DNA of 61,310 nt, filler included, from Sluysia triapertura (taxonomy: Eukaryota), in the NCBI GenBank assembly GCA_046118255.1. It is 4 parts of 4 records of this genome, joined end to end, with 100 filler letters (N's around TTAATTAATTAA, not from the genome) between each part and the next. Parts side by side here need not be neighbours in the genome. Positions count along the whole stretch, not along the records: positions 1 to 13,151 come from JBJNIA010056216.1; 3 more parts are not named here. One strand, written 5' to 3'. The notes beneath the pieces were generated by a model. It made no database searches. It was not told where the DNA came from and was given only the letters and a program-made list of their open reading frames with translations. Position numbers and translations under genes: made by a program. This document shows positions 1 to 27,215 of the stretch, one piece after another (positions within the stretch are counted from its first letter, which is position 1; each line of letters opens with the position of its first letter).

Positions 1-2
1 GA

Positions 3-1780
3 ATGCTCACTAAAAAGAATGTAACATTTAAATGGACTGAAGAACAAACTAAAGCATTCAAACAATTAAAAGAAAAATTAACAACACCTCCAATTTTAAT
101 GTTTCAAGATATGAACAAACCATTTACATTAAGAATTGGTGCTAGTAATTTTGCTGGAGGAGCAATACTATGGCAGAAAAATAAAGATAACTTAGAAGGA
201 GTAATATTATATGCAAGTAGAAGATTAAATAAAGCGGAAATGAATTCTACAATAGAGAATGTCTAGCTGTAGTATATGCTTGCAAATTATTCAAACATTA
301 TTTATTAGGTCAAAAAGTATATTTGTATACCGATCATAAACCATTAACTTACTTGTATAACCATAAAGATGAGGTTTACAAAATTGGCAGAATTTGATTT
401 ACAAAAAGTATATAAACCTGGTTCATTAAATAATGGTGCAGATTGCATGTCTCGTCTAACTAATACAGATGAACAAGGAAATGTAAAACAAATTAAACTT
501 TATTGAAATAATGGCTATATCTGGTAAAATTGAAGAATCAAAAGAAATCATTAAACATCAAAGAAAAGATGAAGAAATGATGCATGTATTTGAAGCAATA
601 GCTAAAGGTCTATTAAGCGAAGAACAAGCTAAGAAATTAGCAATAACTGATGGTATATTGCGTTTCAAAGATCCTAAGGATGAATGGAAAACGATAATAC
701 CTAAATCATTAATAAGTCCTCTATTAATTCAATTTCACGATGGCCATGTTAGGTGGACATTTGTCCACAAGGAAAACATTATCAAGTATTAAGAATAAAT
801 ATTATTGGGATAATATGGATGAAGATATAAAACATTGGTGTAAGAACTGTGCAGTTTGTTGTAGAAGAAAGAATACTGGAACGAAAACTAAAGTACCATT
901 AAACTAATGCCGATACCACTTTCACCGATGGAATTTACTGCAATGGATATAATGGGCCCATTACCCGAAACAATTATTGGAAATAAATAAATAATAGATT
1001 ATTTAACAAAATGGCCCGAATCATATTCACTATCCAATCAAAAAGTTGAAACAATCGCTCACATACTGGTAGAAAAAATAATATATCGGTATGGCACATC
1101 TAGAAAGTTATTAACAGATCAAGGAACTAATTTCACTAGTGATGTAATAAAATCAGTCGCTAAAATGTTTAATTTTTGAAAAAATATACTTCGCCATACC
1201 ACCCACAAACAGATGGAATGGTAGAAAAATTTAATAGAACTTTAATAAACATGCTTCAATCATATGTAAATGAAAGACAAAAAGACTGGGATCTTTATAT
1301 AGCTCCATGTTTATTCGCATATAGAAATTCAGTTCATCCAGCGACAAATTTGACACCATTGAATTTAATGTATGGAAGACACGCGAATATGCCTGTTGAT
1401 TTAGAATGGGTACCACTATCATCTCAATATTTAGAAACTCCGGAATACATAACAATAATGAGAGCAAATTTACAATATGCTTGGAAACGCGAAGGTTTAC
1501 AAATACGACATACTCAAGAAACGTATAAAGATAATTATGATACAAAAGCAAAAGCACATAATTTTGAAATTGGAGATAAAGTATTACTGGATTATTCAAT
1601 AGCGAAACCAGGATACTCTTCAAAATTACATAAACCATTTAATGGACCATATGAAGTGATGAAAACAACGTCTACTAATATATATATTAAAAAACCAAAT
1701 GATATAAATGCAGACTTTTGTAGCACATGTAAATCAGTGTAAATTAGCACCAAAAGAAGAATATAACTTAAGAAACACAA
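3..1780 (+). pseudogene. pol: Gypsy pol: RT connection/RNase H and integrase (zinc finger, DDE core, GPY/F)
   Basis: FKWTEEQTKAF..LTTPPIL; YASRRL; LAVVYACKLFKHYLLGQKVYLYTDHKPL; YYWDNMDEDIKHWCKNCAVC; MDIMGPLP; LLTDQGTNF; YHPQTDGMVEKFNRTL; KLHKPFNGPYEV; split by frameshifts and stops. Confidence 0.95.
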
Positions 1781-1889
1781 AAGTTACAAAAAGTATTTTG
1801 AAGGTTAAACCAAGAACCATAGATAGAGATAAACCACCTTCACCAACAAAGAAATCTTCCGAAAGTGAAATAAAAATGATAACTTCTTC

Positions 1890-2215
1890 ATTCAACTCTC
1901 AAAGTCATTTAATACTAAGTATAAAATTTAATCAAAGATAGATGAGAGCACTTATAGATACCGGATCTAATAATACAGCAATAAATTACTATATGTTACA
2001 GCCTTCAGAAATAGTGACGATACAAGATGTAGGATTAAGATTATTTACAGTAGATGGATCAATTATAAAATTTAATGGAATGTTACAATGTCAATTGATT
2101 ATTTTAGATATAAATAGGTGCACCAATAGTAGTTTGGAATTTTTGTCCTTATGAAATATTAATAGGTATGGATGTTATAAGTAAATTAGATAATATTGTC
2201 ATTCATGGTAGACTA
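1890..2215 (+). pseudogene. Retropepsin-like aspartic protease domain downstream of integrase
   Basis: RALIDTGSNNTAI (catalytic D-T-G), flap-like LFTVDGSII, and after a frameshift CPYEILIGMDVI (ILG-x-D motif); same frame as the integrase tail QTFVAHVNQCK, one TAG at 1939-1941. Confidence 0.8.
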
Positions 2216-2379
2216 TGATTTCTAAAGATGTCAGTAAATGCATAAATATCTTTACCACAAATCGTATTAGATAATTCGCCAAGACCATCTATAACTACAC
2301 TAAATTGGAATAACTTAGATTGGTGGGATAGAGATACTACAGTGACATCAATATCTGGATTAGAGTTGAATCATTAAAT

Positions 2380-4480
2380 ATATCAAGAATAGAAAATAAC
2401 AATGGTAATGATGAATATAATAACAGTAATACTAAAAGTAGTATAATGCTAATAAAGGGGATACAGAATAATAATAAATCTCTTTATATTATTACTTTAA
2501 TACTATTATTTATACAAGTAATAACCATGGTAATTTCGAATCCATCAAAATTGATATCGTACACTAATACTACACAAGGATTCTCTGTAGAAAATACTTT
2601 TAATCGGTATTGGTCAATAGAAATAGACATAAAAAATGAAATTCCAAAATATTATTTAGATATGTATTGAATCTATACTAATCCATTCTTAATGAAACCA
2701 CCTTCATAAATAAACAATAGCTATTACTGTGAACATTCAATTTATTAAATTACCATTTTAATAATTTCATTACTTAATAATAAATCCCAAATAGAACAGT
2801 TTAAAGATATGTTTAAAAAAAGTAATAATATAACTATTGAAGATTGTAATCAACCACTAATAAATGAACCATTGATGATCCAAACAAGGAATAATACTAT
2901 TAATACAAATAAAACTACATCAATTAAACAAAAAGGGGATAATAACTATATTTTTATAATAATTCTTGCGATATTTACTTTGCTTTATTTAATGTCTTCA
3001 ATTTATTACAAAGTTGTTTGTAAAAAGAGTTTATAGATCCAAATATTTTGATTTTTACGATTACGACACAAAGATACAAGTTAAAATATTTGATAACAGT
3101 ATCTAAGCACAATGTATCTGTATAAACCCCGCAAGATTTAATTTCAGTATATGGAAAGTTTACAAACAAAGAATACATAAAAATGTATATCCCCAACAAT
3201 TTGCAGTGGTTTTATGGCAACGGATGATAGACACTTAGTTATGTTTGTAAAAAGTCATGCTAAAGCTATTCAACAATTACACTATTCAATAAAAGGTAAA
3301 CGGGAAAAAACAATTATTATAAAGAAGTTGCATAAGGATCCATCAATAACAATTTTATTAATTGCAGGTACTTTATTTATAATAGCAATAATAAGGGCAT
3401 TATTAATGATTGGTATATTTATTACTACTAAATGCAAAAACACGCATTTGTCAAACAATGATGATAACAATAATCACTATTCAATTCCACGAAATCATTC
3501 ATTCTTTGCTCCTCTAGGACCACCAATGATACCACCACCAATTTATGATTATAATAGTAAAACAAGAATTCCTACACATTATAGTGGAATACAGGTGTCT
3601 TCTGTTTTACTTTGTATTTGCTTAACTTGTATTTCTGATACTTATATATCAAAAATCACGAAAAATAGTATAAGTAGAAGAATTCTTTATTAAAATAATA
3701 TGCAACTGTCAATTCAATCAAAACAGATGAGATAATAGCTGTTATTAAAATAATAGAAAAGAAACTGATATATTTATCAATACGATGTTGCCTGGAAAAT
3801 GGTGTATTACATCAACCAATCCGTATAAAACTACTAAGTACTGGATAATTAATTGTGAAGAATTATTGGAATTTCAATTTCATAAAGTTACTATAACTAT
3901 TGAATTAATAGATAGGACAATATATACACAAAATCATTGGATTCAAACCAACCCGTATATATACTTTGATAAAATAGCGATAAAATTCTCAATATTAGCA
4001 AAAGGGATGGTCATAATTTAGTTAAGATAACAAATCCATTAGAAAACAACTCAGATATTATATAAATATAGTATATACTTATGGATTGATAGTACAAAAA
4101 CAAACAGTCAAACGAAACTATTAAGCTGATTCGTTATTATCAATAATACACGTATGGATACTTTAAACTAATGAAACATTAAAATTCTATGTATTTTGGC
4201 CGTTTAAGACACCTTTCAATCTAGTAATACATATTTCAAACATAACAATAAAAAGGTACGTAAGTACTACAAGAAGAAGACATTAAAATCCTAGTAACTA
4301 AAGATAATACTAAAATAACTAATCTACAGAACTGTAATAATTAACATCAATTAACATTCAACAAAATGATATTAAAATTAATGTATATTTCTACATCTTA
4401 ATAAGTATGCTTTATTCTAAACTTATGGTTAATATCATCATAGAAACTATCATAAAATTTGCACTAAACAAAAATAACCT
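2380..4480 (+). pseudogene. Env-position membrane polyprotein (serial signal peptides/TM anchors, N-glycosylation sequons, PPxY)
   Basis: ORFs at 2446, 2809 and 3214 share one frame; hydrophobic stretches YIITLILLFIQVITMVIS, YIFIIILAIFTLLYLMSSI, ITILLIAGTLFIIAIIRALLMIGIFIT, SSVLLCICLTCIS; sequons NTT/NIT/NNT/NKT; PPPIY at 3532-3546. Confidence 0.6.
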
Positions 4481-4791
4481 AAAATACAAAAATAATTATT
4501 TAAAGACCATTAAAGTGTAGGGCATAATGACGTGTGAAAAATGGGCAGTAATCAGTTGGATTTTCTTCTGTCTAACAGGCTGCCCAATTCTAATACTGTC
4601 ATTTAAATTGTAAATATTAGCTGTTAGGATTTTTGCATATATAACATAATTTTTAAGTTTTAACATATATACAGTACAATTTTTAAGTTTTTTAATAAAG
4701 AGTTTAATAATGATTTATTATTTACTTTAATATTATTATTATATTTCGTTTTATTTCATTTTCTTTTACTTCTTTTATTACATTTTAGAAA

Positions 4792-5200
4792 ATGGTTTAC
4801 AAACGTTGCCCCATATACCAGAAATGTATACACAAAAAATACATAAAAATGACTCCATGACACATAGGGCCCACTTTGAGTGTATGATAGGCCTTTTCAA
4901 ACATTTCGTAGAAGAAACAGTAAATTGTCCTCTTTGTAGGATTCAACTTATAAGTATGAATGTATTCCGTAAGGGAACTTTTCTTTACGAATACATCTTT
5001 GAAAGAATTCTACCACATATATTGAAAAGAGGAATAAAGGTACAGGAAGTGGAAATAATACAACCAGAGGAACTCAATAGAAATACTTCAAACACTTTAG
5101 TTGTTCCTCCAACAAATTTCCCTCCTGAGTTGAAGAAATCTCAAAAGCATAGCTGCCGACATAGGGAAGTGTGAAAATTCTACAAGCTGGCAGGACTATA
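4792..5200 (+). pseudogene. RING-H2 zinc finger (E3 ubiquitin ligase-like) accessory gene of the retroelement
   Basis: From ATG 4792: MVYKRCPI(Y)QKCIHKKYIKMTP, a 1-nt deletion at a Cys codon (~4858), then THRAHFECMIGLFKHFVEETVNCPLCR; C3H2C3 spacing once two lesions are repaired. Confidence 0.75.
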
Positions 5201-5397
5201 AAAAAATATCAAAGATTAAGAAAAAATAAATCTTTAAAGAAAAACAATCAATAATTTAATTTCCTTCAATTCTTTTCTTTACTTTATTTTCCTAAAATAC
5301 ATAAAGATAAAATTACCAATTATGAACTAACGATTATTTTTTCATTGTTAACAATTTTTATATATTTTATGTATTATTCTTAGATTTATAAATATCT

Positions 5398-6600
5398 ATG
5401 TCGGATTATCAACATGCACATATAATAAACAATATTAATTCCTTCTATAATGGAATAAACAGATTTTGCGGTAACAGTGATACTCCATTTGTATTCTTAG
5501 ATTCCAAAGCAACTCCAAATTTTCTGAAAAATGAAATGGATATACATTTTATTACTTACCTCTATGGAGTAAAAGCTTTACAAGCACCTTTGAATATTCA
5601 AACATTAGAAGGCTTTCCAGTAGGAAAAGGTATGATTTTAATAGCATCAGCTAGAGGAGCATTGAAAGTAACTTTATTTATTAATAATCTTCCTCTATAC
5701 TCTCGTATACAGGGATTATTAAAAATATAAAGGAAAGTAGAAGCGGAAGAACTACCAATAACATTTGCTGTTCTTCTCGAATCTGATGTTGATAACATAA
5801 ATGTTTGGCAACAAGGTTTAACTTTCACACATTTACCCTACGAAGATATAGCTAATAAGGATTATTTAATATTTGTAGCAATTAATTTGGCTTTGGATTT
5901 TCATGATACACATCAAATTATTCGAGCTGGTTTTACGCCATATCACAAACAATATCATTCTGAAGAATGAGAATTAAGAACTTTCTCAAAGTAGAACATG
6001 GATTAAAGGAAATTGATTTAAAAGATGCGAGAGATATTGCAGAAATATCATATACATGTAGCTTGCTTACCGGAATTTATTATTAGGACATTTCAAATAC
6101 CTTTTGGATGGTTACGTGGCATTATCAATTTAACTTCTACAAATTTCATCCGTCAAATCGCGCTAGGAAAGTATTAAAACTTTTGTGTCCATTTCCGCCG
6201 AGAGATACTTGCACGAAATTAGCACAAGATTATATATCACTTTTTGAATTGATTAAGCAGAGAAATGCATCATTTTTGCCGCAAATAATTGATCAACATT
6301 TGAATAATCAAATTTCATCTACTTCTGCAGCTTCTTTTCTATTACATAATAAAAATTCTGCACAAAATCTTCCACATAAAGGCAAGAAACATTAAGACAT
6401 AACACTCTCCTTGTTAAATGATATGGTCGACGAAACCGCATTGAAGAGACGGAAAATCGAGAATTCGGCAGATAACTAAGTGGAAAAAGGAAATAAGCAG
6501 CAAGTTGATAGTTTTGAAAATTTCGGTACCATTGATTTAAACCTGGATGGTGACGATTTCTTTGATTATGACGACTTTATTTATATGACAAATATTTAAT
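5398..6600 (+). pseudogene. Unknown ~350-400 aa accessory ORF of the retroelement, with an acidic C-terminus
   Basis: Frame 5398-5730 continues past TAA (RKVEAEELPITFAVLLESDVDNINVWQQGL...); further pieces at 6108-6395 and an acidic tail DLNLDGDDFFDYDDF; coding-like composition. Confidence 0.55.
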
Positions 6601-6688
6601 TTTTGATTATATTCTAATGACAATTTTTTTCCTTTATTATGGTAATTTCAATTCATTAGTCATTTAAAATTAGGGACTAATTTTTCCT

Positions 6689-6702
6689 GAAGGGAAAGTT
6701 AT
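6689..6702 (+). promoter_or_regulatory. Polypurine tract (plus-strand primer)
   Basis: gggactaatttttcctGAAGGGAAAGttat directly before TGTAAA, the typical Gypsy 3' end context. Confidence 0.75.
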
Positions 6703-7071
6703 TGTAAAGTTATTTTTAAATATCTTTGTTTAGTATTAGTAAATTAAATTTTTATGGTAAAATAAAATTAAAAAACAAAAGTTAATAGTATTTTTAGTAT
6801 AGTATTAAAAAACAAATAAATATTAAATATTAGATATTTAAATTTATTAAATCATTATATATTAAATATTTAAAATTATATTAAATAATATTTATTTTAA
6901 TATTGAAATTTATTTATAATATTTGTTCTAATGAATTGAAATTTATTTGTTTTAATGAATCATTATTATGTTGATATGAACATTAAACATTAAAATTACT
7001 ATATAAATAGCTTTTTGGACAGAGTAAAATTTATCAGTATTAACTATATTATTTGTTAAGAAGAATTTACA
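6703..7071 (+). repeat. 3' LTR (~370 bp)
   Basis: Starts TGTAAA after the PPT, ends TTTACA (6-bp inverted termini), TATA-like ctatataaatag near 7000; the 5' LTR is outside the window, so the end is unconfirmed. Confidence 0.6.
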
Positions 7072-7339
7072 TTTAAAGATTGATTTTGTCACAACAGAAT
7101 TTGGGAAATTATATTTTCGAAGAAAATTAAAAGATTATATTATCCACAAAAGAAATTATATTAATACGAATTTTTTGAAATTGAAAAATCATTAAGTATT
7201 TCTTTTAAGATAAATCAAAATTATATATAAAATATACGTAAACTTACTAACAAATTAAGTAAAATTTTGTACGATATAAAATAATTTATAAAATCTGTAA
7301 ACTATTAAATATTAATTAATAAATTAATATTTAAAATAT

Positions 7340-7780
7340 TTTATTATATTATACTAAAGGCTCTCAAATGCTTATCGATATTTCAAGAATACTTAAATGT
7401 TACTAAAGTCTTCATTGTTCTAAAGTTCAAAAGTACCTTAATGCTTCTAAAAGTTCTTCGAGTCCATCTCAAGCTTCCATGAGGTCTCAAACCTTTACAT
7501 AGGTCTTTGGAACTCCAAGGTATTCTTTGACTCTTAACATTATTATGGATGTTTTTTCCTTTCATGATTCTTATACAAACGATGATTACAATGTTCAATC
7601 CATCATTTTGTATCAGTTTTTCTTTCATCTAATAATTCTACATGTTTCTCATTCATCTTCTGATCTACAGTTGGGCAATCCCAACACTTACACGTACATA
7701 TTCACACATAAACTCAAATTCACCTTATTACACGAACACGAAATCATTACAATTAAAACTGAAATTCATAGGTTATGAGA
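7340..7780 (+). repeat. Dispersed repeat family A, copy 1
   Basis: Shares ttcaagaatacttaaa with 12070; catctcaagcttcca..aggtctcaa..cct matches the reverse complement of 26790-26845. Confidence 0.7.
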
Positions 7781-8596
7781 CTTAATATAATAAACCACAG
7801 CTAAAATCTTAACTCTATGTAAAATCAATAATACATATTAGGAAGTTCGATAAGCGTCACATGCTTTGTTACTAGTGAAACTGCATCATTCATTGCCTTT
7901 ATTTTGTTACTGCACCCAGTGGAGAGACCGCCACTCCGGTATTACATGTCGTTGTGAGATTGTATTATGTTGTTGTGAATGTTCACTTTTGTTTTTGCCG
8001 GGGTTGCGATTTTTGTGTTTTTCCTTTTTTATTCTCATTATCATTAATATTATTTTATTTTTTTATTACTATTTTTTTATTTTTATATCACAATTCTTAA
8101 TAATATCGATAATTTTTTAAATATGCAACATGTTACTACTGAAAATGATAAAGTCGAAGGCGTTACCTTTCAAAACTGTTACAAGAAAACCGAGAAATCG
8201 AGATTACATATGCTATATTTTACACGTCGAAATCATCTTTAACAATCTCAATTTTTGGAGAAGTGCCATTTTACTATAATAGCTATAATTTTAAAACATC
8301 GCAACAAATGGAACGTCGGAAAACCTACATAAAAAAAGGGAATGTTCAAATTATGAATTCCTATTGACGAAACATGTTTCGGAAAGCTTTATAATTGATG
8401 TTATTGCTTCGGGAGACAGTTTATGGGGTTTTTATCGAATTTCCAACAAATAAATCTGGAGTTTTGCCAATTGTTTATTGTTAAACACGATGGAACCATA
8501 TTACAAGATAATATATACATTATGTCAAATGATTATCAGTTATATTCATGGTACTCACGAAAAATATGCATTATGGACATCGAAGGCTAAGATAAT

Positions 8597-9255
8597 ATGA
8601 ATTATGATGACAAGTTAGAACTAGATGTCTTTAATAATTTGAATGATTTCAGTAAAAGAAAGTCATCCACTGATTCACGTCTAAAAGATAGTGAAATTCA
8701 AAAATTAAATATTCCAGAGAACCACATTTATATAGATACTGGCCAATGGCCAAGATACATGACAGACGAAGAAGTTGATGCTTATTTTAGTTCTAAGCCT
8801 CTTAATGTAAATAAATCTAAAATTAGAAAATCGAAATTGAGTTAGTGGCTAAAAGATGCCGAAAATTTAGAAATTTATGGAAATGAATATTCAAATTATT
8901 TTAAATTTAGTGCTGTAAGATATAATGAGGGCATGAAAAATGGGATATTCGAATTAATCGAACTACCACTTTCAAGCGAAAATAGTTTAAATATTAAAAA
9001 ATATAAAGTATATTTAAATTCTAATGAAGGAGGAGATCAATAATCCAGTTACCGTTTTTCCTGTTAAAGCTACAAAAGTTTCTGAATTTATTGGATTAGT
9101 TTGTTGGACGTGTACTGAAGAAAATCGAAATCCCCGAATTTCGAAGAAATCATTTCAAAATTTTTAAGTTCATATGTTTGAAGATTTTTAAGTATGAATT
9201 ATGGATATTTCGTTGATACAGATTTAATATATAAATATTGTGAAGGTCTGAAGTA
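8597..9255 (+). pseudogene. MAPKAP1: SIN1/MAPKAP1 (TORC2 subunit) N-terminal and CRIM domain fragment
   Basis: HIYIDTGQWPRYMTDEEVD; KSKLS*WLK..NEYSNYFKF; KKYKVYL; NPVTVFPVKATKVSEFIGLVCWTCTEENRNP; VHMFED..VDTD, resembling SIN1 PMTVV..RVQDLIGLICWQYTSEGREP..LHIAEDDGEVDTD; stop 8843, stop/frameshift ~9041. Confidence 0.75.
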
Positions 9256-9287
9256 AAAGTAAAGCAACAGAATAAAGTAAAAGCTTA

Positions 9288-9340
9288 ACGTGAGTTCACC
9301 AACGTACTGGACTTACCAGTTAGGGTCAGCCGTTGGATTT
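9288..9340. repeat. GC-richer structured motif, copy 1
   Basis: cgtgagttcaccaacgtactggacttaccagttagggtcagccgttggattt; near-identical to 46585-46636. Confidence 0.75.
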
Positions 9341-11689
9341 GTAGATAAAAGTAAAAAGAATTTTCTCGAAATGCAATGTAAATTTAAAAACTTCTTTATT
9401 TGGTTTTATTATTATTACTATTACTTTTTTGAAATTTTTAGTAAGTATGGAGGTTTATAAAAATATAATCAAAAAATAATTTAATTGATATTTTACGTAG
9501 ATCCTATGAAAAATATCGTTAATAAGTATTTTACATAGTTAGAATTAAAATCTAACTATGGAAATCTTTTTCGTAGTACTGATTTTATATTTAAAACTAT
9601 TTAATAAGAACGAAGAAATGTTATCGAAAATTTTATTATACAATGACAAAATGATAATTTATCATTCCGTTACAAAATGAAAATAAAAAATAATATAATT
9701 TACGAGATAATTACTATAAGTAATTCTTATTTCGATAATATTTTAGTAAAGGATTTTTCGTGGATCTATTATAAGATCCAAAATAAATATTAAATAGTTT
9801 ACGTGGATTTTTCGTGGATATCACTCGGATATCGGAACTTATTATAAATAAACTAACGGTTATTTTATTAAATCAAAGGTAAATATGGTCAAAAATCTTT
9901 ATATTGGCTCCCGATATATCGAAGAAAAACCACTATGAGTGTACCAAAAATTTATTGTCGAGAAATTATTGGCAGAATTATTTATTTGTTGTTGTGAAAC
10001 TGAAATTTATTTGTTCATTATGTATAGGATTTATTGACCTTGACCAGATTTGAATTTTAATTTATTAAAATAAAAATATAAATTTTTAAAATTAAATGAA
10101 AATTAATATTTAATATTTACAAATTTTATAAACAAAATTAATATTTAAAATATTTACAAAAATAACAATGAAAAATAAAACATACTTTTGAAAAGTCCAC
10201 AAAAATATCATTTGAATATTAATAATAAAAATTCCATAAAAACATTATTTGAATTCCACAAATATTCAGCAGATATACAAGTCAAAAATAAAAATATTCA
10301 GCAAACACACATAACATAATAGTTCATAGTTCATAATACAACATTAACAATATCAATTCACTCCCAAAATTAAGTTTTTAAATCAAATTAATAACAGCAA
10401 CAAAAATCAAATACAAATTACTATTATAAGTGTTCACGTACAATGATAAAAATAACTAAAATTACATAATTAACAATAACATTTGGAATAATATTGGCAG
10501 CACAATAATCCATATAACAAAACCAGGAGTTACGCAACAAACAATTAAAATATCAATATCTAGAAAGTTAAAAAATATGATAATGCTTAAATATTTTCAG
10601 ATAATCTTAACCTAACTTAATAATTGTTAGAATCAATTATAGAATCAAAAATCAAATTTATCAGTTTTCTATAAACAGATAAAAGTAACAATAAAATTAT
10701 TAAAATATTTCAAAGTAACTTTATTTTATTTTATTTTAACTTTATTTTAGCAATAATTATAAAAATTTGATCAGGGATCCTCCCAAAAAACAAGTTTATG
10801 AATATCTAAAAAAGTTAAAATTAAAATTACTAAAATTAAAAATAATAATGAAATTTATATATGAAAATGTTTCAAAATGATAACCACAAAAAATCATATT
10901 TATTTATTAATAATTTAAAAACTATTATGGTTTCTTATTATTACAAAAATTGCTATTATAAAGCCAGCTAAAATATTTTCCTTAAAAATAATTTATTTAT
11001 TTTATTTTATTTATTTATTCTTTTTAAAATAATAAAATAATAGAAATAAAAAAATATTACCATATGCATGGATAATCTCCTGTTGGATGCCTGTACGATT
11101 GTGTTGTAAAATTTTTAAGTTTTTCATTTTATGCTCTCTCATTATCTAATTAATCTCAAGCCTCACAATAAAACACTTTCTCACACAAATCATCAAAACT
11201 TCTTTGAGAATTAGACTGACAATAACAACGTTGACAATTACATTAGGTACAGCTTCATTAGGTACAAAACACAAAAATTTGATTTATTATCAAATATCAT
11301 TTTCTGTTACTCTACTCAATCCCTTTTTACTTAAATTACTTCTCACATTAAATAACAACCAATAATATTATTAATATACATTAAAAAAATGAATTTAATT
11401 TTAGAATTTAATTGATTTTCAATTTTTCATACCCAATCGTCTAATAAAAATGTTTTAAATTTCTTATTCTCAAACAAACCATTCTACAAACATTTTAAAC
11501 TCACTTGTAGATTCTCCTTTTTCATAGCAGTCATCTCATATTCCATTCATTATATTTGTATCATACTAAGATTAAAAATTCAACATTCCATAATTAAGAA
11601 TTAATTAAAATTTAACTTTGCTCAATATTAAGCTTTCCTTGCATGAACTTGGTCAAACCATACTTTCATCAAAAGGTCTTTTCAAAACA

Positions 11690-26639: not shown

Positions 26640-27215
26640 AAATTATGTGCACCTTTACATGTCCAATCGTTGAATAAGAAGCGAGTAAGAAGCATGAAGA
26701 TGCAGGAAAAATTAGTAGAAATTGATGGATACAACATTATAACCATTTCCGGAATAAGAATCATGAAGATTTATAATATTGATATCTTGGTGTTCCAGAG
26801 ACCTATATAAGGTGTTGAGACCTTGTGGAAGCTTGAGATGTACTTGGAAAAACTTTCAAAGCACCCTTGAACTTCTGAATCTTGAGATAATTTAAGACCT
26901 CATTGACCCTTAAGTAATGTTGAAACCTTGATAAGCATTTAAAATCTTTTAATAACCTTATAAAGTTTTGAAATCTTTAAAATATAGTTGAAATAAATCA
27001 GAGTGGTGAAGACGAAGGCATCTAGAACTTCCAAAGCACTTTATAAAATACTAAACAGTTTTAGAACCTTAATAAAACCTTTAAACATAAAAATAAGATT
27101 AAGTCTAAAAATTAATTAATTAAAATCTTAATTGACTTAATTAAGAAAAAATACATCACTGAATAACATTTGAATGCAAAATGGTGTGCCAAAATGGAAA
27201 CTGTGTATGTTTTTG
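26640..27215 (-). repeat. Dispersed repeat family A, copy 3 (inverted)
   Basis: Reverse-complement similarity to 7340-7680 and 11690-12090. Confidence 0.7.

Follow-up and report, generated by a model that had tools for sequence, protein, structure and literature searches.

Planarian giant Gypsy retrotransposons of the Burro/GYPSM1 type carry env in frame between gag and protease, and they bear MATH, BIR, Ubi/SUMO-like and BCL2 domains together with accessory ORFs (PMC6431247). As far as the available text of that account goes, it contains no stand-alone RING ORF, its sole mention of RING being the AIR1 motif label in the polyprotein. A second described parallel is provided by Juno and Vesta, LTR retrotransposons of bdelloid rotifers, which have separate enzymatic ORF3s, including DEDD-type exonucleases and esterases; ORF3s of LTR retrotransposons are typically expressed from spliced messages, and the word RING is absent from the main text of that paper (PMC5408684). 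In the literature we found no stand-alone RING ORF in an LTR element, and the original Burro paper, Repbase and supplements may already annotate some. Accessory ORFs in Gypsy elements are already known. AIR1 is a zinc-knuckle family. Large DNA viruses encode RING ligases that act against host defences, and retroviruses usually borrow host ligases via adaptors.

The window, by which we mean the whole stretch of Sluysia triapertura DNA that was analysed (61,310 nucleotides, filler included), contains a broken RING-like ORF downstream of a decayed Gypsy pol. We put the probability at roughly 0.7 that this ORF was once a 3' accessory gene of a giant, Burro-like Gypsy retroelement and is now dead in this copy. 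The features on which this reading draws are as follows:

6..1782, + strand: remains of the 3' part of a Gypsy pol, spread over several frames and cut off by the left edge, with RNase H, integrase zinc finger, integrase core and an SH3-like end
1915..2203, + strand: second retropepsin-like piece with an IDTGS motif (Pfam gag-asp_proteas, E 0.058; tblastn), as in relatives P0001-P0003 and locus L003
2332..3693, + strand: C-terminal region of the polyprotein, decayed, which closes with a membrane segment and a PPxY tail (piece 3181-3693)
3749..4200, + strand: decayed open stretch from the ORF list, possibly a further accessory ORF
4766..4788, + strand: pyrimidine tract plus YAG resembling a 3' splice acceptor (16 of 20 pyrimidines), ending 3 nt before ATG 4792
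4792..4860, + strand: 5' RING piece, with start codon, ligand 1 (Cys 4807), Tyr 4816 at ligand 2 and a frame break at 4858-4859
4860..5174, + strand: 3' RING piece, with ligands 4-8 (His 4863, His 4872, Cys 4881, Cys 4926, Cys 4935) and Arg 4938
5398..6395, + strand: decayed ORF, possibly the clade's exonuclease-like accessory gene, a weak match (tblastn E 0.057 to L004)

The preliminary description had joined the frame of ATG 4792 to a "4806 frame" to obtain a RING-H2 motif. This motif is real, and the second frame corresponds to 4731-5174. The ATG 4792 frame holds C-P-I-Y at 4807-4818 and meets a stop codon at 4858-4860, and the 4731-5174 frame (+ strand) continues with H4863-x2-H4872-x2-C4881-x14-C4926-P-L-C4935-R. 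Six of the eight RING-H2 ligands are thus present, split over frames 4792-4860 and 4731-5174: the site of ligand 2 is a Tyr (codon 4816), and ligand 3 coincides with the frame break, 13 residues past ligand 2. The spacing (x2, x13, x1, x2, x2, x14, x2) falls within the RING-H2 range. For comparison we used 121 viral loci fetched by a RING-H2 pattern, which yielded 106 distinct domains. Among these, a gap of 13 residues between ligands 2 and 3 occurs in 19 and a gap of 14 between ligands 6 and 7 in 4, and Arg follows ligand 8, as it does at 4938, in 87. The window copy has no Trp after ligand 6, a residue demanded by the reference pattern, and has an extra Cys at 4825 in its 5' piece. The 3' half of the motif lies inside a 147-codon open frame in DNA of 25% GC, where about 78 residues follow Arg 4938 up to the stop at 5172-5174; the ORF therefore ends at 5174, short of the 5200 given earlier. 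All nine contigs of run X1 listed at this stop differ from the window, which suggests that the RING ORF of the family probably extends further. The ligand 2 and frame-break positions are absent among the best-supported run X1 differences, which were those listed, and no second copy of the RING region was found within the window.

A pattern covering the 3' half, H-x2-H-x2-C-x(8-20)-C-P-x-C-[RK], is found a single time in the window and never in 300 shuffled windows, and the looser H-x2-H-x2-C-x(8-20)-C-x2-C averages 0.003 per shuffled window. Scored in three blocks against the 106 viral domains, the window copy reached 34.9 bits with an X at the frame break and 17.9 in one frame, compared with best matches of 8.0-18.9 bits in 12 shuffled windows and 65-90 for natural domains. 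Because of the pattern used to fetch it, the reference set is biased to C-G-H-x-F-H and so penalises the window sequence. An HMM built from the same domains gave about 10 bits, a score exceeded by two of six shuffled windows, and the upstream frame added nothing. With hhalign, the whole domain aligned at a probability of 26.5% (P 0.0007; score 22.6 against a maximum of 15.8 in 40 shuffles), the upstream frame contributing just 0.7 to the score. Pfam found no RING in either piece scanned alone (E<=1), NCBIfam gave no match to the RING pieces and Rfam none in the window. The earlier suggestion that a nearest host or viral homologue might be traced led to none for the RING ORF: a word search with the 3' piece (proteins of 56-181 aa) gave no candidate homologue, phmmer against 1.84 billion representatives returned 0 matches, and PDB sequences returned 0 at E<=10 for the RING piece. 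The ESM Atlas leads for the 3' piece were all below 0.9, and 10 of the 10 named matches belong to the RING clan; a single-sequence AlphaFold model of this piece had a pLDDT of 45.

Judged by these sequence comparisons, the ORF is a divergent derivative of RING-H2, dead in the window copy, and its two lesions, at ligands 2 and 3, belong to the wider decay by which pol is broken as well. RING-H2 (C3H2C3) ligases of the zf-RING_2 type share with it the ligand order, the spacing and the C-P-x-C-R end; they have eight ligands, whereas the window copy is two short. The claim of a RING-H2 ligase hidden by a frame break is thus borne out for the RING-H2 derivation, through the block score and hhalign, and the word ligase fits the lineage rather than the window copy, since two ligands are missing here. 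The viral ligases named as parallels, ICP0, p28 and IE2/PE38, are RING-HC proteins, and we found no sequence link to them beyond the shared RING fold.

The start of the 5' piece carries a signal of its own. Among 196 + strand ATGs at 100-9400, ATG 4792 is the sole one that combines a YAG no more than 5 nt away with 14 or more pyrimidines, and this acceptor signal supports 4792 as a true start independently of the protein motif. Five loci of the same integrase clade reach past the polyprotein (L001, L002, L003, L004 and L006), with two to three same-strand ORFs 3' of it in every case. Of these 11 accessory ORFs, 7 have their first ATG no more than 3 nt from a YAG, compared with a background of 91 of 905 ATGs in those loci (binomial p 2.4e-5). 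As an observation in its own right, the start of these 7 lies no more than 1 nt from the YAG acceptor, and this row of acceptor-led 3' ORFs in the five loci resembles subgenomic splicing or a trans-spliced operon.

Upstream of the RING-like ORF, RNase H precedes the integrase and the integrase is Gypsy-type, which identifies the decayed pol as Ty3/Gypsy (Pfam rve, E 6e-06; SH3_Tf2-1, E 0.015). The best integrase relatives are metagenome proteins at 45-56% identity; when P0001-P0012 and P0086 served as tblastn queries, the piece with the integrase core (1176-1736) was matched at 45-57% identity. In a quick tree of 178 columns, for which 81 of 88 candidates were kept and 7 dropped for short matches, the window integrase falls in a 20-row clade (SH-aLRT 97). 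Planarian Burro/GYPSM1 sequences, including those of S. mediterranea, are outside the scope of this tree, and the term Burro-like refers to the layout of the relatives. Within the clade, P0086 (a polyprotein of 3735 aa) and L004 (L004:2-10279, >3400 aa) have a Monjiviricetes_fusion glycoprotein ahead of the protease. Env between gag and protease is the layout reported for Burro (PMC6431247), and we therefore call the element Burro-like; a further likeness is found in L003, which has ankyrin repeats downstream of the integrase. In the element of the window itself, the part where env would stand lies outside the window. No BIR or ankyrin repeats were matched by Pfam in the decayed window pieces at 2332-3693.

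The available part of the Burro account (PMC6431247) does not mention certain other traits of the clade, namely a second protease after the integrase, a membrane tail and the acceptor-led 3' ORFs standing in a row. An extra retropepsin follows the integrase in the window (1915-2203), in P0001-P0003 and in L003, and P0003 has two, flanking a C2H2-like motif. The membrane segment in piece 3181-3693 has a hydropathy of 2.66 over 19 residues; a terminal membrane segment was present in 12 of the 12 relatives examined and PPxY in 3 of them. Farther 3', DEDD-type exonuclease-like ORFs occur at L003:7268-10371 (two in tandem), L004:10617-12104, L006:5011-6525 and L002:3723-5873. Those of L003 and L004 include RNase_T-family exonuclease ORFs, and those of L002 and the first of L003 are degenerate, without a Pfam match. 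Separate 3' ORFs that include exonucleases, as in L003 and L004, are shared with Juno and Vesta, and the clade has two to three such ORFs in a row. Pol, the second protease, the membrane tail, the RING-like ORF and the ORF at 5398-6395 are all on the + strand of the window. The last of these scored 25.8 by hhalign against a maximum of 18.9 in 102 control stretches, and its z of 4.8 holds against one of six relatives only, with a break position picked for the best score and shuffles not so optimised. An HMM of the clade's exonuclease-like ORFs gave -3.0 bits in the window, within the range of 20 shuffles, and the stretch at 3749-4200 matched neither Pfam nor the relatives' accessory ORFs. Viral contigs gave at best weak integrase matches and no RING of the L002 type. 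Two clade members, L089 (G001) and L090 (G002), come from MAGs that bear a bacterial label; since G002 contains 13 integrase matches as well as two RING ORFs, these contigs look eukaryotic, or mobile, within their bins.

RING genes were also found in related elements. Across 152 loci the RING pattern was matched in two, L002 and L023. L002 is the only one of the five clade loci with 3' DNA that has a RING, and its RING is of another type than that of the window. The gene is an intact 445-aa RING-HC ORF at L002:2055-3389 (Pfam zf-C3HC4, 28.7 bits, cut-off 21) in a locus whose integrase is 50% identical to that of the window, and it sits between the polyprotein tail and the exonuclease-like ORF common to L003, L004 and L006. 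Like the window ORF, this L002 gene is acceptor-led, follows the polyprotein in an element of the same integrase clade and carries its RING close to the N-terminus; unlike that ORF, it and its family (P0087-P0093) are of the C3HC4 type, are 404-446 aa long and show no likeness to the window outside the RING, to which the alignment of the family profile with the window is confined (hhalign P 0.011). Six relatives of the L002 RING (P0088-P0093) share 44-51% identity with it. The L002 RING is closest to cellular RING clusters (Atlas 0.93-0.95), and its family may be RNF10/Mag2-like. Because it resembles a cellular family, it was probably captured separately from the RING-H2 of the window. Outside the clade, the last gene of the Gypsy locus L023, 3' of env-like ORFs, is a RING-HC-like ORF of 116 aa (L023:9426-9776; Pfam E 2.7e-05, below the cut-off). 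The RING genes of L002, L023 and the window suggest repeated capture. Two further RING matches, L274 and L275 (G002), were set aside as element RINGs, no pol being seen on their contigs.

Every bin of positions 1-7000 is covered by contigs of run X1, and 13,970 of 18,300 run X1 records are less than 95% alike, from which we conclude that the region is a diverged repeat; depth in this run is not copy number. The variable sites listed inside the RING ORF are each covered by 7-18 run X1 contigs. Among the contigs listed, none links the RING with pol or with the membrane tail; a joint 1576->4722, seen in one contig with 21 letters on one side, was set aside. No LTR pair or long direct repeat was found in the window, the 5' end of the element lying outside it, and there is no purine tract of at least 11 followed by TG between 5100 and 8300. 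A candidate LTR start near 5170 was rejected, because other copies differ there and the repeat cover runs past it. The earlier placement of an accessory gene inside an LTR element is thus sustained indirectly, by the Gypsy pol upstream, the multiple copies, the acceptor-ATG signature and the L002 RING, and falls short at the element boundaries, where an LTR pair is missing. On this evidence the RING probably lies inside the Gypsy element.

A different origin would be that the RING ORF comes from another repeat, either a nested or adjacent element or a carried host exon, that merely lies beside the Gypsy pol, its acceptor being an ordinary intron end. The missing LTR pair and the lack of a bridging contig among those listed leave room for this, as do the summed run X1 depth, which varies about threefold along 2199-6280, the distance from membrane tail to RING (1.1 kb in the window against 250 bp in L002) and the frequency of YAG within 3 nt of window ATGs at large (78 of 1086). 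However, the ORF has the strand and the region of the clade's accessory ORFs, a strong pyrimidine tract stands immediately 5' of its ATG, a weak exonuclease-like remnant follows downstream, and the scanned pieces revealed neither a transposase nor any other gene of a mobile element. We consider such an origin unlikely. The motif could also be a chance cluster of Cys and His in decayed AT-rich DNA, given that Pfam, NCBIfam, PDB and homologue searches found no match, that the HMM score lies inside the shuffle range and that the Atlas leads stay under 0.9. Chance would nevertheless have to account for a strict half-motif that no shuffled window produced, a block score reached by none of the 12 controls, an independent acceptor-ATG signal ahead of the 5' half and an open frame of 147 codons despite 25% GC, and we regard it as highly improbable.

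It is also conceivable that the gene belongs to the element and is derived from a RING but serves as a zinc-binding adaptor or decoy rather than as an active ligase; its family might use Cys 4825 or lack one ligand throughout. The low scores of the RING profiles (HMM and hhalign), the rare gap of 14 residues, the missing Trp and the degeneration of neighbouring exonuclease-like ORFs (that of L002 and one of the L003 pair) would all be in keeping with this. Against it, the Arg after ligand 8 is the common residue and the gap of 13 is within range, and the reference set is biased to C-G-H-x-F-H. An adaptor or decoy seems quite improbable to us.

As a dead copy of an accessory gene of a Burro-like element, the ORF can be placed in the layout of complete relatives, whose polyprotein runs from Gag and a viral-type fusion glycoprotein through protease, RT, RNase H and integrase to a variable extra region and, last, a membrane tail. 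Separate ORFs follow in a row, most of them starting directly behind a 3' splice-acceptor signal. The RING ORF may be expressed from its own spliced RNA, or possibly by trans-splicing. Working copies would bind two zinc ions in the cross-brace manner of RING-H2 domains and recruit an E2. The window copy retains Ile after ligand 1, Pro after ligand 7 and Arg after ligand 8, positions that take part in E2 binding in RINGs. Residues C-terminal to the RING might then bind a substrate. Least certain is what this substrate would be: given the preceding steps, it is close to an even bet, if slightly short of one, that it is a host factor limiting the element, for example one of silencing, RNA surveillance or stress. 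The neighbouring exonuclease-like genes point to RNA handling. PPxY motifs recruit host ligases and act in budding; a budding role for the RING, which had been proposed as one option, is less likely, because the upstream membrane tail carries a PPxY of its own. In a broader and tentative view, for which we would not claim even odds, the clade consists of giant, enveloped Gypsy elements that work in the manner of complex retroviruses, with a row of separately spliced 3' accessory genes in which a recurrent "RING slot" was filled independently by RING-H2 (window) and by a cellular RING-HC ligase that was captured (L002 family) beside exonuclease-like genes, together forming a counter-defence kit against host RNA and ribosome surveillance; the L023 lineage would have converged on a terminal RING ORF.

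If true, a retrotransposon lineage with RING genes of its own, gained repeatedly, would demonstrate that elements of this kind can bring about the degradation of host proteins without an intermediary, and from the substrates one could be led to anti-transposon factors of invertebrates that are not yet known. This would extend the suggestion, made in the account of Burro, that these elements meddle with ubiquitination (PMC6431247). The window copy is a fossil, and its value lies in the clade it reveals and in the intact RING ORFs of its relatives.

As a whole, the window consists of AT-rich sequence (20-31% GC in most 1-kb stretches) with N gaps. A repeat of very high depth in run X1 occupies 7217-7686; one contig joins it to place 4483, and it has an inverted copy of 69% at 26671-26977 and a partial copy at 12006-12089. 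A further decayed ORF (8120-9043, + strand) lies in a repeat of lower depth, and neither of its two scanned pieces had a convincing match in Pfam. At 14901-15685, pieces of ST7 appear in overlapping frames (14901-15257 and 15026-15367), consistent with a short intron or an assembly error. The animal-type genes recognised in the window are ST7, THADA and FtsJ.
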